A DNA stretch of 64,000 bases. It comes from an uncultured virus (IMG/VR IMGVR_UViG_3300010002_000006). Lineage: Duplodnaviria; Heunggongvirae; Uroviricota; Caudoviricetes. The notes beneath the pieces are model-generated. The model ran no database searches. It worked only from the letters and a program-made list of their open reading frames with translations, and was not told the origin of the DNA. The stretch covers positions 124,001-188,000 of IMG/VR virus record IMGVR_UViG_3300010002_000006, one strand, 5' to 3'. This document shows, one piece after another, positions 46,644-51,330 of the stretch. The position numbers and the translations under genes are program-made. Each line of letters starts with the position of its first letter. Position 1 is the first letter of the stretch.

Positions 46644-47192
46644 TCTCCCATAGTTCAGTTGGTAGAACGAGGTAAAGATCATGGCAATGAGGGATTTAAA
46701 GATCCTTTTCGATAGCATAGTCTCTGATCCTTCTTCGGGCTGCTGGAACTGGACTAAGAGTACTCGTGAAGGATATGGTCAAATCAAAGTTGGCGATATC
46801 CACTGGACGACACACCGTTATGCTGCAACAGCTATTTATGGTGAGATTCCGAAAGGGATGGTCGTTAGACATTCCTGTAATAACCGACGGTGCTGTAATC
46901 CTAATCACTTAAGCATCGGCAGTCACCAGGATAATTGGGAAGACTCTGAAGTAGTTCACAGAGAGAACACCGATAAGATGAGAAAGATGAGAGGTTGGAA
47001 CATAGACGGTGTCTGTTATCCATCTTCTCGAATCGCTCATCAGAAAACTGGCATTTCGATGGCGAGCTTAGTCAAGTATACTCAATCTGGTATATTCGAT
47101 ATAGAAACGTATCGGAAGAATTGCGAACGCCAGGGTAAAGTTCCCAAAGTCTGATCCGTATGTCGCAAGTTCGAGCCTTGCCGGGAGAGCCA
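46644..47192 (+). pseudogene. tRNA-Asn-derived gene split by an HNH endonuclease ORF (5' half 46644..46669, 3' half 47155..47192)
   Basis: TCTCCCA TA GTTC AGTTGGTA GAAC G ... TCCGT ATGTC GCAAG TTCGAGC CTTGC CGGGAGA GCCA. Closely parallels enterobacterial tRNA-Asn; anticodon loop and 5' anticodon strand are missing. Confidence 0.8.
46681..47154 (+). mobile_element. HNH homing endonuclease
   Basis: CWNW...GYG...THR...VRHSCNNRRCCNPNHL..GSHQDN (HNH_3/His-Cys type). Confidence 0.9.
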
Positions 47193-47194
47193 AA

Positions 47195-47295
47195 TTACAT
47201 TCACACGCAGTTGGGGTACAATAGACCAGGGGCGCTTTTGCGACCATACCTGGGATCCACTTCCCACCTACCAGCATAAGGACGTGTGGATGTAA
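47195..47295 (+). ncRNA. Structured ncRNA candidate
   Basis: 13-bp closing stem TTACATTCACACG/CGTGTGGATGTAA with nested CCAGG/CCTGG and CGC-TTTT-GCG; fills the gap between two tRNA genes. Confidence 0.55.
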
Positions 47296-47301
47296 CCTTT
47301 T

Positions 47302-47391
47302 AGAGAGTTGGATGAGCGGTTTAAGTCACCTCCCTGCTAAGGAGGCGTATCAGTAATGGTACCGAGGGTTCGAATCCCTCACTCTCTGCCA
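47302..47391 (+). tRNA. tRNA-Ser(GCT)
   Basis: AGAGAGT/ACTCTCT acceptor, CCTCC-CTGCTAA-GGAGG anticodon arm, long variable arm, GAGGG-TTCGAAT-CCCTC, encoded GCCA. Confidence 0.95.
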
Positions 47392-47394
47392 AAT

Positions 47395-47481
47395 ATCGGG
47401 ATAGTCTATTTAAACTTAGTGTCGGAATTCGACGGCGGATACGTCCGTAAGGCTATGTAGGTTCGAATCCTACTCCTGATA
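47395..47481 (+). ncRNA. tRNA-like RNA (acceptor + T arm, non-canonical core)
   Basis: ATCGGGA/TCCTGAT acceptor, GTAGG-TTCGAAT-CCTAC; internal hairpins GTCG/CGAC and GCGGA-TACG-TCCGT. Confidence 0.65.
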
Positions 47482-47489
47482 ATAAATAT

Positions 47490-47593
47490 GCGGTTATGTC
47501 TTTAGGGGCATCGTAAAGGTACGAAAGTGGATGATTAGTTTCTACCACTGGATAACTTTACAGTAGTCAGGTTAAATCCCTGTGGCCGCGCCA
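47490..47593 (+). ncRNA. tRNA-like RNA ending in CCA
   Basis: GCGGTTA/TGGCCGC-GCCA acceptor; variant T arm CAGG-TTAAATC-CCTG; three internal hairpins. Confidence 0.55.
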
Positions 47594-47602
47594 AATTTTT
47601 AT

Positions 47603-47740
47603 GGGGGTCGTGTCGTGGGACACAAGTTCGGTTATGCTCTAGCGATCGAAGATCGTGAACCCATTAGCGGTGAAGATAGACAACTCTACTTTAACTGTAC
47701 TGAACGATAAGCCGAGTTCGACTCTCGGGACTGTCTACTC
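47603..47740 (+). ncRNA. tRNA-like RNA candidate
   Basis: Perfect T arm CCGAG-TTCGACT-CTCGG; weak acceptor GGGGGTC/GACTGTC; hairpins GTGTC/GACAC and CGATC-GAA-GATCG. Confidence 0.4.
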
Positions 47741-47759
47741 ATTTCATAAGGAATAGGTT

Positions 47760-47897
47760 ATGGATTTTGATTTAGATGATTTAGAGATCACCGGTCTCGA
47801 TGAAGCTGAAGCGCGTAATACCGAGCGTCTGAACGAAGCGGATGCAGCTGCTGCGGCAATTGGCGATGAAGCCGACTGCGAAGGTTGTAAGATCTAA
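47760..47897 (+). CDS. 45-aa acidic peptide ending in a CxxC motif resembling the NrdA C-terminal tail
   Basis: MDFDLDDLEITGLDEAEARNTERLNEADAAAAAIGDEADCEGCKI; TAAGGA RBS; below the track cutoff. Confidence 0.75.
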   Translation: MDFDLDDLEITGLDEAEARNTERLNEADAAAAAIGDEADCEGCKI

Positions 47898-48003
47898 TTT
47901 TTACCTGTCAGTATGTTTTAAGATGGACCTGTTTTAGCAACACAAAAATAATGCATTGGCTGCCAGTTGGATAACCAGCGGTAGATCAAGGCAACACCCT
48001 CTT

Positions 48004-48081
48004 AGGCGGGTAGCTCAGTCTGGTAGAGCGCCGTGGGGTACACTCCCACACCTGTCCGTGGTTCGAATCCACGCTCGCCTA
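48004..48081 (+). tRNA. tRNA-like gene with aberrant anticodon arm (undetermined/pseudo-tRNA)
   Basis: Canonical acceptor AGGCGGG/CTCGCCT, D arm GCTC-AGTCTGGTA-GAGC and T arm CGTGG-TTCGAAT-CCACG; loop GTACACT lacks purine-37; no CCA. Confidence 0.65.
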
Positions 48082-48346
48082 AACTTTTTAATTCGTTAGC
48101 GGAGATTCCAAATGAGTATGGCTTACCCTTCAGAGTTTAAACACGCGCACTCCCAGCCTTGTATGGTCGTTGAAGTTCTCGTTCAACCTTCAACCATCTG
48201 CCAGGCATCTGTTTGTGATCAAGAGTCCAAAGCGGCTCCGTCATTAAACATTATGGGTAGTAGCATCGTGCCGTCGCAGTCTTGTAGCGACAGACTCAGA
48301 AGTTTTGGTATTTGATTGACACGGCTCTACTGTTTAGGAAACATGC

Positions 48347-48622
48347 ATGAAAATCGTTATTTACGGTCGACCTGGTTGCCCGTACTGCGTTAAAGCTCAC
48401 GATCTCTGCCAGGCCAAAGCCCTGGACTTCGAATACATCGATTATAAAGATGTAGGTCTAGAGAAAGCAGATCTGGAAAAGATCGTTGGCAAGCTGATCA
48501 CCACTGTTCCCCAGATTCTGGTTGACGGTGTTCCGATCGGCGGTTTCACCGAATTACAGCAATACCTTCTGGACCTACAAAGCGAAGATCCTCTGGATAC
48601 GGACGATCTCGGCGGCATTTAA
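48347..48622 (+). CDS. grxA: Glutaredoxin (Grx1-like)
   Basis: YGRPGCPYC, TVPQI, IGGFTEL. Confidence 0.93.
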   Translation: MKIVIYGRPGCPYCVKAHDLCQAKALDFEYIDYKDVGLEKADLEKIVGKLITTVPQILVDGVPIGGFTELQQYLLDLQSEDPLDTDDLGGI

Positions 48623-48642
48623 CTGACAACGGCGGTGAACCC

Positions 48643-48786
48643 ATGAAAATCAAGAAGAAAAGTATCTCTCTGAAAGAAAAGATTCGCCGCCTTAATCAGA
48701 ATGCAGAAAAACCGCTGTACCTGGATGGGGATGGTGATACTTTCACTATGACCAAAACCAAAGATGGGTACCGGCTAAACCAGTAG
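48643..48786 (+). CDS. 47-aa basic hypothetical protein
   Basis: MKIKKKSISLKEKIRRLNQ...; follows grx; below the track cutoff. Confidence 0.5.
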   Translation: MKIKKKSISLKEKIRRLNQNAEKPLYLDGDGDTFTMTKTKDGYRLNQ

Positions 48787-48843
48787 GGTCTCTGACCCTA
48801 TTGTATTTTTTTGTCTTCAACTACCGTATATTATGTAATTCAA

Positions 48844-49473
48844 TCGAATGTAGCTGTTTGCAGCCCTGAGGGGCGGCTTGGTTATGTTACCTCGTTATAT
48901 TCGACTGTAAGACCCTTGTTATCCAGGTGTGGGAATATAACAAGGGCAATACCCGGTAACTTGCAGTGCCGGGTTAAATCCAAGTAAGACCGGCGACCGT
49001 TATCTCGCTATCCGTTGAGCTTGGTGGGCAATGCAGTGAGCTGACCTCAGCTGCGTCATAGCAACGCGACTAAAGAGAAGTCCCCCTATCGTCTAAGCTT
49101 AAGACACCTCGACTTAATTGTTGGGGGAAATCTGAGATGAACCCGAAACACTCAATTGGGGGCAAATATAAAATATCTTTAGTAGTGGGAAAGTTGTGCC
49201 CTTTCCTGACAATAGTATGAAAATATTATTGTCAACCTCTTTGTACCGGTGGCTGATATCCAAGTAGAGCTTTAATTATACCTGACGGCATAGCGCTCAA
49301 AGTGAACAACCATTGGTACATCCTCTTGAGGGTCTTGAACGAGAACCGTAGACAGATCCACCGAGCGCAACTACGTCGCATATAAAGGTGGAATTAGCAG
49401 GGGACTAGCGAGTCATCCTGGGTGATATCAAGATCCTCAACCTTATCTACTCTCCGTGATATGGAGTGGATAC
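48844..49473 (+). ncRNA. Array of structured RNA modules, including a degenerate tRNA-like element at about 49080..49165
   Basis: No credible ORF; back-to-back 10-13 bp closing stems with G-U pairs (48844..48904, 48913..48946, 49207..49234, 49242..49320, 49326..49440). Confidence 0.5.
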
Positions 49474-49488
49474 TCTCCTGGTGGAGAA

Positions 49489-49585
49489 CGTCGTACCATC
49501 TGATGAGTCCTGCGACGGTAAAAAATAATGGGGACGAAACGGGTTCTGCAGAAGGGGTCTCCAAACTCTGAGCAGATCCGTCATG
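49489..49585 (+). ncRNA. Hammerhead ribozyme (type I topology, pseudoknotted)
   Basis: CTGATGA (49500..49506), stem II GTCC/GGAC, GAAAC, stem III ACGGG(T)TCTGC/GCAGATCCGT, GTC cleavage triplet (after C49582), stem I CAT/ATG, loop II TGCGACG pairing with 5' CGTCGTA. Confidence 0.8.
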
Positions 49586-49842
49586 AATCGCTCCGCCCTA
49601 ACTGTGAGGAGCAGCCTCAGTCTACGATTCTAGAGGAACAACAGCGTCGCCTGCAGGGGACCATTGGCAAATGGGATCTTAAGGTTGGCAAACAGTCCGC
49701 TCCTTTTGCCAGAGGAGAAGTTGTCAAAACCAAGAGGTGTAGACAGCCTTTAGACCACTGTAATGATGAATCGGGGTTGCTCCCGTAGTAACCACCACCA
49801 GTGATCTTTAGGGTGTTTACAAAAATAATAAATAGATAGAGA

Positions 49843-49872
49843 CCCTCTACTCTCCGTTAGGAGAGTAGAGGG
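49843..49872. terminator. Terminator hairpin (CTCTACTC family) closing the RNA island
   Basis: CCCTCTACTCTCC/GGAGAGTAGAGGG; T-rich runs on both strands. Confidence 0.8.
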
Positions 49873-49883
49873 AATCTTTTTTA

Positions 49884-50282
49884 TTAGTTTTCTAAAGTCA
49901 GTTCATGCCAGACTTTATACAGACGATCCATGTCATTATACAGTTTACCTAATGCTACTGTATTTTTCAGATTACCTGCGTAACACCAGAGTTCGCATTT
50001 AGGCTCGCCCTTCAGTATAATGTCGTTGAAATACATCACGACGGATTTAGCTGAGGTTGCAATCAAATCTTTGCGGTTAACCGCAAAAGGAAACTCGTTA
50101 GAATCATCGATCACGTTGCAGCAGTAAATAAATAATGCTGCATCGAAGTCGTTAATATCGAACCCATGTTCTTCGATCAAGCCGAACCGACGGGTTTCAA
50201 TTGCGGAGCTAACCACATCTAACTTAACCAGAGATCCATCAGCAGTGATCATTGACAGGTTACGTTTGAAAATATTTTCCAT
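49884..50282 (-). CDS. Hypothetical early protein
   Basis: Start MENIFK after GGAG; promoter motif at 50329..50336. Confidence 0.7.
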   Translation of the reverse strand: MENIFKRNLSMITADGSLVKLDVVSSAIETRRFGLIEEHGFDINDFDAALFIYCCNVIDDSNEFPFAVNRKDLIATSAKSVVMYFNDIILKGEPKCELWCYAGNLKNTVALGKLYNDMDRLYKVWHELTLEN

Positions 50283-50319
50283 GTTATTCTCCAATAGATT
50301 AAGAACATTATTGTTCATA

Positions 50320-50346
50320 TATACTTAAATGATATCGGTCTGAAAT
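50320..50346 (-). promoter_or_regulatory. Putative phage early promoter
   Basis: TTTCAGACCGATATCATTTAAGTA. Confidence 0.65.
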
Positions 50347-50472
50347 GGAATGTGACTAAACCATACTCTATTTGATCATATGAGCTCGTTTCATTCACAG
50401 CCAGGACGGTTGTTAATGAGACTCCTTTGCGGTCATTGTGACTCAGAGGCTATTTCGAAATAGAGGTAACAT

Positions 50473-51330
50473 ATGAGTTTAAGTTCACCCGTTGATTTTG
50501 CGATCAACTACGTCATTAACGGTCCCACTGATATCAGCGAGTATTTGCTGAAGCTTGCCTTTACGCCCATTAACAATGGCTATGGCGGACCCTGGGGATC
50601 GATCAACACCGAGTTCTCTATTGAACAAGGCCTGCGTGATAAAGTCATCAACAAAATGGTGGCTCCCCTGTTACAGGTGGCAGGTGGTCAAACAGAAACC
50701 ATCGATCTTAGTGGTGCACATATTGAGAACCTGGCAGGCGGTATGATCTGGGTAAACGTACCCGATTTTCTGACCGGCGGTCGTCGCATTCTGGAAGTGG
50801 TGGAAGTCTATCCGGGGAATATGACTCAGAACATCGTGGGCGGTCAACTCTCTGGCGGTGGTGGTATTGGTTGCAGTCCTGGCGCCATTGCCGGCGGTTT
50901 AAGTCGTTTGCTGAATAACCTGGATGATTCACAGGTTACCCGAAGCTTCACAAGCTTTACCCCGGTAGGTCCAAACTCCTTTATTATCCGTGATGCCAGT
51001 TCAGTAATGTTCAACATGGTGGCCAAGGTGATCTTGTCATATGACGAGAATTTCTCTGGGGTTCCCCTGAAGATGTTTGACAAGTTCGCAGAACTGGTTG
51101 AGTTGGGAACCAAAGCCTACATCTATAAGACCTGTCGCCGTGGCATGCAAGAAGCCGTCTCTCGTTTTGGCGTTACCGTTGACGATGTGCAAGATGACAT
51201 CCAGGGGTACTCAGATGCTGCGCAGCAGTTCAGAGAGTTCTACAACGAGAAGATGAAGAAGTATATGGCGTATGCTGATGCCAAAGGCAAAACCGACTCC
51301 ATTAAAATGATGGTACCAAGGAAGCGATAA
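50473..51330 (+). CDS. Conserved hypothetical, probably virion/late protein
   Basis: 285 aa; GAGGT RBS; plus-strand operon. Confidence 0.6.
   Translation: MSLSSPVDFAINYVINGPTDISEYLLKLAFTPINNGYGGPWGSINTEFSIEQGLRDKVINKMVAPLLQVAGGQTETIDLSGAHIENLAGGMIWVNVPDFLTGGRRILEVVEVYPGNMTQNIVGGQLSGGGGIGCSPGAIAGGLSRLLNNLDDSQVTRSFTSFTPVGPNSFIIRDASSVMFNMVAKVILSYDENFSGVPLKMFDKFAELVELGTKAYIYKTCRRGMQEAVSRFGVTVDDVQDDIQGYSDAAQQFREFYNEKMKKYMAYADAKGKTDSIKMMVPRKR

Follow-up and report, generated by a model that had tools for sequence, protein, structure and literature searches.

The 64,000-nt stretch analysed here (the window throughout; bases 124001-188000 of the 260,738-bp viral record IMGVR_UViG_3300010002_000006, which has direct terminal repeats) comes from an uncultured virus whose closest named relative is Erwinia phage AH04. 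It contains a gene-free RNA unit with + strand terminator-like hairpins at both ends, in which a predicted pseudoknotted hammerhead ribozyme (49489-49585) lies between two conserved structured RNAs, here called modules A and B. A neighbouring virion-protein gene (285 aa, 50473-51330) has homologues that are 63%–78% identical in AH04, SXP01, Yubaba, N1M2, Kc263, OBP, pEt-SU, and Survivor, 58%–63% identical in a set of Aeromonas jumbo phages, and about 40% identical in EL-like phages. OBP is named among chimallin-encoding, nucleus-forming phages in the part of PMC10299810 drawn on here. The features of the unit, with the basis for each and with counts that refer to the 13 homologues compared below, are as follows.

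48781-48813, + strand: terminator-like hairpin (stem 48781-48803) and T-run (tail TATTTTTTTG) closing the upstream unit; the RNA unit starts after it
48834-49473, + strand: module A, a conserved structured non-coding RNA (ncRNA) of about 650 nt (nhmmer profile, RNAalifold)
49480-49486, + strand: GGUGGAG, predicted 3' strand of a long-range helix closing module A, pairing with about 48890-48898 (alignment columns 62-68 with 758-764)
49489-49495, + strand: 5' flank CGUCGUA, the 5' strand of the pseudoknot (sequence; the conserved hexamer is 49489-49494)
49497-49499, + strand: CAU, 5' strand of stem I (sequence, comparison)
49500-49506, + strand: core C3 U4 G5 A6 U7 G8 A9 (sequence; invariant in 13/13 apart from N7)
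49507-49535, + strand: stem II, GUCC (49507-49510) with GGAC (49532-49535), and its 21-nt loop II (sequence, comparison)
49511-49517, + strand: UGCGACG in loop II, the 3' strand of the pseudoknot (sequence, comparison)
49518-49531, + strand: A-rich remainder of loop II (sequence, comparison)
49536-49539, + strand: core G12 A13 A14 and A15.1 (sequence; GAAA in 13/13)
49539-49549 with 49572-49581, + strand: stem III, an extended hairpin of 10 pairs with U49545 bulged
Inside 49539-49581, + strand: inner hairpin of stem III with conserved apical loop UCUCCAAA (sequence, comparison)
49580-49582, + strand: cleavage triplet G49580 U49581 C49582 (GUC in 13/13)
49582-49583, + strand: predicted cleavage site, C17 (49582) ^ A1.1 (49583), from hammerhead numbering
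49583-49585, + strand: AUG, 3' strand of stem I (sequence, comparison)
49583-49842, + strand: module B, a conserved structured RNA of about 260 nt (nhmmer, RNAalifold)
49590-49612, + strand: first hairpin of module B, GCUCC (49590-49594), loop GCCCUAACUGUGA, and GGAGC (49608-49612) (comparative folding)
49843-49882, + strand: intrinsic-terminator-like hairpin (13 bp) and T-run ending the RNA unit (sequence)

The arrangement of these elements in the window is that of a type I hammerhead. Stem I is open and carries both the 5' and 3' ends, loops cap stems II and III, and the 5' flank can pair with loop II over 7 bp, one of them U-G. The original prediction had described this site as a pseudoknotted hammerhead, and its coordinates for every hammerhead element proved correct base for base when the sequence of 49300-49800 was read. 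The bare pattern CTGATGA-N(10-40)-CGAAA is not rare, with 1 match in the window against 0.35 expected and at least one match in 30 of 100 shuffles. A full descriptor was defined as the core, a 4-bp stem II with G10.1-C11.1, a stem III of at least 5 bp closing on A15.1-U16.1, an H17 that is not G, and a 3-bp stem I. This descriptor matched the window at this site only and matched none of 300 dinucleotide-preserving shuffles, with both strands searched, which excludes a chance match. A longer stem I, taken from the minimum free energy (MFE) fold (GGUGGAG at 49480-86 with CUCCGCC at 49591-97), was rejected because comparative folding pairs 49590-94 with 49608-12 and GGUGG with the 5' end of module A.

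Homologues of the element were found in a group of related phages. BLAST with the non-coding kilobase matched AH04 over 91% of its length and Kc263 only across the ribozyme core, and an exact-pattern scan of IMG/VR gave four further records with the element. A covariance model of the nested hammerhead helices (R1), built from 7 seed sequences and searched against 20 sources, had matches in 12 of them, comprising all 7 seeds and 5 full-length members outside the seed: Survivor (88.7 bits), N1M2 (76.6), Yubaba (76.1), SXP01 (56.6), and OBP (55.1, E 2.9e-11). A metagenome pattern scan returned 15 loci, among which were one new member (L055, 79.2 bits with R1) and one duplicate of contig L009. The model separated the family, at 55–110 bits, from unrelated hammerheads obtained with looser patterns, at 21.6–31.1 bits. 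Six Aeromonas phage loci, EL, and RisingSun gave no R1 match at E <= 10, and no ribozyme family was found at E <= 0.5 in the six Aeromonas loci. There is no second copy of the element in the window phage's own 260,738-bp genome. The comparative set thus consisted of 13 distinct homologues, from AH04, Kc263, N1M2, Yubaba, SXP01, OBP, Survivor, a pEt-SU-length record, and uncultured contigs.

Comparison of these 13 homologues supports the predicted element as a functional type I hammerhead, through conservation of its core and covariation of its stems and pseudoknot. The core CUGANGA is present in 13/13, and N7 is its only varying position (U in five, C in seven, A in one). Position 7 is the one dispensable position of the hammerhead core, and variation confined to it is a classical signature of the class. 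GAAA, U16.1-C17, the G-U-C triplet, and G10.1-C11.1 were each found in 13/13, as was the A15.1-U16.1 pair (alignment columns 58-107, AU throughout). In stem I, the pair next to the core is UA in ten sequences, CG in two, and GC in one; the second is AU in eleven and CG in two; and the third is CG in nine, UA in two, and AU in one, with one broken A.A. The fourth pair of stem II is CG in six sequences and UA in four. Stem III is an extended hairpin in all, with a distal part that is rewritten by lineage (CUGC/GCAG, CUGU/ACAG, UCACU/AGUGA, CUUCAC/GUGAAG, and others). Changes on both sides of a pair therefore occur in all three stem I pairs, the fourth pair of stem II, and distal stem III. In alignment A4, 93.5% of 245 cells were paired compared with 78.9% in shuffles, and 10 of 19 pairs had changed on both sides. 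None of 500 shuffles reached its covariation score, and sliding the partners by 1–3 columns reduced pairing to 29%–42%.

The pseudoknot showed the same pattern of changed but maintained pairing. When the flank hexamer and loop II hexamer were aligned by their invariant CG, the six successive pairs formed in 12, 13, 13, 13, 13, and 12 of the 13 sequences (76 of 78 cells), and the pair types include C-G/U-A/G-C, A-U/G-C/U-A/C-G, U-A/C-G, and U-G/U-A/C-G/A-U. The two strands, flank first, are given here for the window and its relatives.

Window: CGUCGU / GCGACG
Most relatives: CAUCGU / GCGAUG
N1M2 and Yubaba: UGUCGU / GCGACA (N1M2) or ACGACA (Yubaba)
SXP01: GUUCGU / GCGAAC
Kc263: CGUCGA / UCGACG
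pEt-SU-length record: CAUCGC / GCGAUG
OBP: four G-C pairs, CCCG / CGGG

A separate MAFFT alignment of the pseudoknot segment alone (A5) was 96.9% paired compared with 79.7% when shuffled; 4 of 6 pairs had changed on both sides and were still paired, and 0 of 500 shuffles reached its score. A loop-shuffle control on the length of the pseudoknot helix had little power, with 6% of shuffles reaching 6 bp, so the argument for the pseudoknot rests on positional covariation. Stem II and the pseudoknot strand are 0–1 nt apart, and the linker to stem I is 2–3 nt. The sequences with a 3-nt linker are the three with a broken fourth pair in stem II (AH04, L009, and L012), and since these are close relatives, the longer linker and shortened stem II are probably one event. 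A accounts for 85 of the 141 nt in the remainder of loop II, counted across all 13 sequences, and such A-richness would fit a strand crossing the pseudoknot helix. The 6–7-bp pseudoknot may act as a tertiary clamp holding stems I and II parallel.

Two observations concern the wider hammerhead architecture. The apical loop of stem III (49555-49570 in the window, and its homologues) keeps the sequence YCUCCAR in 12/13, with SXP01 differing, though the stem beneath it is rewritten. No positionally consistent partner for this loop was found in modules A or B among 12 sequences. Separately, two short metagenome contigs (L051:698-786, - strand, and L044:95-183, + strand) carry an unrelated hammerhead of the same architecture that scores 30–31 bits with R1. 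Its stem I is 3 bp long (GGA/UCC) and its linker 3 nt; the 5' flank pairs with loop II over 6 bp to give the pseudoknot (UACCGG/CCGGUA), the rest of the loop is A-rich, and the triplet is GUA. This design is therefore not confined to the phage clade studied here.

The RNAs on either side of the ribozyme are themselves conserved and richly paired. For module A, RNAalifold on 10 sequences gave 85 pairs, 51 of them with compensatory change, and its invariant blocks include GUAAGACC, UAAAUCC, CUGGUGGG, GAACCCGAA, GAACGA, and GAUAUC. Its closing helix is predicted and is GU-rich in the window. Module A is conserved only in OBP/AH04/N1M2/pEt-SU-like phages, and its nhmmer profile matches only hammerhead-bearing loci. 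For module B, RNAalifold on 8 sequences gave 51 pairs, 22 with compensatory change. Its first hairpin has five stem pairs, three of them changed on both sides, and a conserved 13-nt loop, GCCYUAACNGUGA. The same hairpin loop, together with a weak match to the module B profile (E 8e-5), is present in Aeromonas phage PS1 (L022:2630-2930), just upstream of the homologous virion gene. In PS1 and its relatives, module B sits behind transfer RNA (tRNA) genes, and no hammerhead core was found upstream of it in PS1. Neither module matched an Rfam family.

The distribution of these parts suggests which RNA the ribozyme serves. All 13 hammerheads are accompanied by module A, and module B occurs without a hammerhead in PS1; the ribozyme therefore travels with module A, not B. 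Nine sequences, in which module B is present, have 275–362 nt between the cut and the end of the terminator tail, and three (Survivor, the pEt-SU-length record, and SXP01), in which the terminator stands alone, have 51–54 nt; the L055 contig reaches no further than the first module B hairpin. Because the element sits within a conserved non-coding transcription unit that has a terminator-like hairpin at each end, the natural reading would be the one given in the original prediction, protein-independent processing of the ncRNA transcript. We consider it probable that the ribozyme is a protein-independent maker of the module A 3' end that also releases module B, with self-cleavage predicted from the sequence. 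What the sequences show directly is the motif, how well it is conserved, the covariation of every helix, and a constant position at the end of module A; catalysis, end chemistry, and biological purpose are inferred.

Several observations weigh against this interpretation. Stem I is just 3 bp (4 are possible in Survivor), the fourth pair of stem II is broken in 3/13 (AH04, L009, and L012), leaving 3 bp, and OBP keeps only 4 of the 6 pseudoknot pairs; minimal stems I and II could mean slow or conditional cleavage. The single-sequence MFE is unremarkable (z = -1.23, equalled by 19 of 200 shuffles), and the case therefore rests on comparison with relatives. In that comparison, all 13 sequences belong to one phage clade, the pseudoknot alignment has 11 distinct rows, the cell counts partly repeat inherited changes, the shuffle statistics ignore kinship among the sequences, and alignment A4 was fitted to the structure of R1. 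The role as a 3'-end maker is itself drawn from co-occurrence. The Rfam hammerhead models, suggested as a check when the element was first noted, fell short of their cut-offs. RF00163 (Hammerhead_1) found the right place, 49497-49548, but at 11.7 bits (E 2.5), below its gathering cut-off of 34. RF00008 scored 18.4 bits against 48.5 and aligned in the wrong (type III) register, and Rfam found no hammerhead at E <= 1 in 7 homologous loci. At gathering thresholds the whole window had no hammerhead and only two tRNA matches, and E-value searches of 49300-49800 and 47000-50500 gave only the weak hammerhead match in the type III register. The core motifs do align with both models, and the Rfam miss is explained by the length of loop II and of the 40-nt stem III, together with a stem I of only 3 bp. 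By the definition of the class the element is a hammerhead, one that lies outside the Rfam families as modelled.

Alternative explanations differ in how much of this evidence they accommodate. The hammerhead could be active while selection keeps its 3' product, the point of the cut being to free module B with a 5'-OH or to separate module A from the RNA downstream of it. Such a role would fit a conserved module B hairpin that starts no more than 7 nt after the cut in 10/13, a module B that is itself conserved and structured (51 pairs, 22 compensatory), and its extension past the clade into Aeromonas phages. However, Survivor, the pEt-SU-length record, and SXP01 keep a perfect hammerhead with just the 51–54-nt terminator after the cut, module B of PS1 has no hammerhead core upstream and sits behind tRNA genes, and the ribozyme accompanies module A in 13/13, so we regard selection on the 3' product as unlikely. 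It is considerably less likely again that the element is a hammerhead-shaped but catalytically silent pseudoknot, acting as a structural or protein-binding part of the large RNA and perhaps descended from a ribozyme. A stem I of only 3 bp, a stem II down to 3 bp in 3/13, Rfam scores far under threshold, and a partnerless conserved apical loop (YCUCCAR) that could be a binding site all agree with this idea, yet every catalytic nucleotide is invariant from Pseudomonas to Shewanella to Enterobacterales phages, H17 and the A15.1-U16.1 pair are kept in 13/13, and the dispensable N7 varies among U, C, and A. An active hammerhead would be expected to show this pattern; a mere scaffold would not.

We give almost no weight to the proposal that there is no ribozyme at this site, whether the motif is a chance match, a protein-coding region, or a type III permutation. 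The bare core pattern is indeed not rare, but the full motif appeared in 0 of 300 shuffles. An open reading frame (ORF; 49528-49788, 86 aa) overlaps the element and Kc263 carries an annotated hypothetical coding sequence (CDS) at the homologous spot, but no ORF in the unit is conserved in place, strand, or length across the 13 sequences. The CDSs annotated over the RNA unit in Kc263 (L008:1490-1681, hypothetical, across the ribozyme) and N1M2 (L018:1871-2383, N1M2_252, opposite strand, across module A) are probably spurious because they have no conserved counterpart ORF in the other 12 sequences. The weak RF00008 alignment corresponds to a type III reading in which stem III is formed from the flanks and the cut follows GUC at 49490-49492. 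That reading, at 18.4 bits, has four non-standard pairs in stem III in the window, and position 16.2 is A in AH04 and most relatives (CAUCGU), which breaks its pair with C15.2.

Under the preferred reading, in which the ribozyme makes the 3' end of module A, the following sequence of events can be proposed. One transcript would carry module A with the ribozyme as its last element and run to the terminator at 49843-49882. During transcription the 5' flank and loop II could pair first, stem II would then form inside that loop to give an H-type pseudoknot, and stem III would fold next. The pseudoknot helix may stack on stem II, with the A-rich remainder of loop II crossing it. The emerging AUG (49583-49585) would then pair with CAU (49497-49499), completing the 3-bp stem I and placing C17 in the active site. 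Hammerhead cleavage leaves 2',3'-cyclic phosphate and 5'-OH ends, and transesterification between C49582 and A49583 would accordingly put the cyclic phosphate on C49582 and the 5'-OH on A49583. The predicted 5' product, about 750 nt with a cyclic-phosphate end, comprises module A and the ribozyme; the predicted 3' product, of about 300 nt, begins with the 5'-OH and comprises module B and the terminator. The 3 bp of stem I would probably be too few to retain the 3' product, making religation unlikely and the cut in effect irreversible. The selected job would be a defined 3' end for module A, free of terminator or trailing RNA, with release of module B a by-product where that module is present.

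The pseudoknotted design has close precedents. The original prediction held that loop II pseudoknots occur in natural hammerheads, and this is borne out by the parts of Perreault et al. 2011 (PMC3088659) drawn on here and in the comparisons that follow. There, pseudoknots between stems I and II are reported in all three hammerhead types and in about 40% of representatives, disrupting one of them cut the rate 20- to >100-fold, and they are needed for fast cleavage; the design is thus already known. Those hammerheads share with the window element the same core and three-helix junction and were found in phage or prophage DNA, and in them, as in the window, a Watson-Crick pseudoknot of at least 4 bp replaces the loop-loop tertiary contact. 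In comparison, the 5' tail of the window element pairs, beyond the 3-bp stem I, with loop II right beside stem II (0–1-nt spacer), its loop II has an A-rich tail of 10–14 nt, its 40-nt stem III hairpin has a conserved apical loop, and its score with the Rfam type I model is just 11.7 bits. Some of the reported hammerheads flank phage or prophage genes or transcripts, and the 5' end of a transcript of the HF2 halovirus maps at the ribozyme (Perreault et al. 2011, PMC3088659). The window ribozyme would likewise define an RNA end; unlike these gene-flanking examples (PMC3088659), it is fused to the 3' end of a large ncRNA, not placed between protein genes, and would stay attached to its RNA after the cut.

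Module A resembles known large phage RNAs without matching their Rfam models. It is several hundred nucleotides long, richly paired, phage-encoded, and next to tRNA genes, all of which it has in common with GOLLD and ROOL. There was no Rfam match to GOLLD, ROOL, RNase P, or group I-II introns at gathering thresholds or at E <= 1-5 in the window and 7 homologous loci. GOLLD and ROOL are large 'ornate' phage-associated RNAs, and we know of no report of a built-in hammerhead in either. The element is unannotated in all 8 GenBank phage genomes examined. We found no published description of it in the jumbo-phage, phiKZ, or Chimalliviridae/OBP/pEt-SU literature searched, with subscription journals outside the scope of the search, and the term 'ribozyme' does not occur in the text of a 2026 jumbo-phage biology review. 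We conclude that the element is a real, conserved, previously unannotated hammerhead of a known class whose host RNA lies outside the catalogued families.

Hammerheads are common in phage DNA, and the ribozyme alone is unsurprising; it is of interest mainly as the boundary marker of a large uncatalogued phage RNA. That strongly structured RNA, whose 3' boundary the ribozyme marks precisely, is conserved in phages that infect Pseudomonas, Shewanella, Erwinia, Klebsiella, Serratia, Kosakonia, Pantoea, and Edwardsiella. The Rfam models miss the subfamily, which is also a clean example from nature of how a pseudoknot between 5' tail and loop II can clamp a minimal 3-bp stem I. Because several members are cultured phages with harmless hosts, the biology of module A is directly testable. 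More tentatively, and as a possibility that we do not favor, OBP-like jumbo phages could have a two-module RNA system, not described before, in which the hammerhead serves as the built-in means of maturation. If so, module A would be a new 'ornate' RNA (scaffold, decoy, or catalyst), closed by a long-range helix and needing an exact 3' end, and module B would be a separable RNA of about 260 nt that other relatives express behind tRNAs. Self-cleavage would let these phages mature RNA without host RNases that are possibly shut out of the phage nucleus, and the products would carry their cyclic-phosphate and 5'-OH ends as protection or as a signal for ligation.

The boundaries of the unit showed further regularities. 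No sigma-70 promoter-like site was found at the start of the unit, a result that is uninformative because phiKZ relatives use their own polymerases. The terminator at 49843-49882 has a near-fixed sequence in relatives (CCCCUAC…GUAGGGG then UUUAUG; L001, L008, L011, and L016-L020), and the genome of the window phage has further copies at other sites. This hairpin could represent a terminator/promoter cassette specific to the phage.

Upstream of the unit, the window contains several tRNA-like features. Directly after a tRNA-Ser, positions 47395-47481 match the Rfam tRNA model at 31.5 bits, just above the cut-off, with a 22-nt insertion in the D region; this tRNA was not called by ARAGORN. ARAGORN did call an 80-nt tRNA-Cys at 48003-48082, with anticodon ACA at an unusual position, where the Rfam tRNA model is below its cut-off. 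This call is overlapped by a weak YrlA-like match (47953-48064, 20.8 bits) and preceded by a stable hairpin, with a fold z of -2.2 for 47950-48085. A gene-free stretch between the tRNAs and a small ORF (47489-47742) ends in sequences resembling a T arm plus acceptor strand plus CCA (…GGUUAAAUCCCUGUGGCCGCGCCA; …CCGAGUUCGACUCUCGG…). It is possible that this stretch holds tRNA-like RNAs, for which single-sequence folds were not significant (z -0.4 and -1.0).

Downstream, the RNA unit is separated from the virion-protein gene by a 144-aa ORF (49884-50318, - strand). The sequence flanking it is common to L010 and L012 and absent from AH04, Kc263, OBP, and others, and given this patchy distribution it looks like a lineage-specific insertion.

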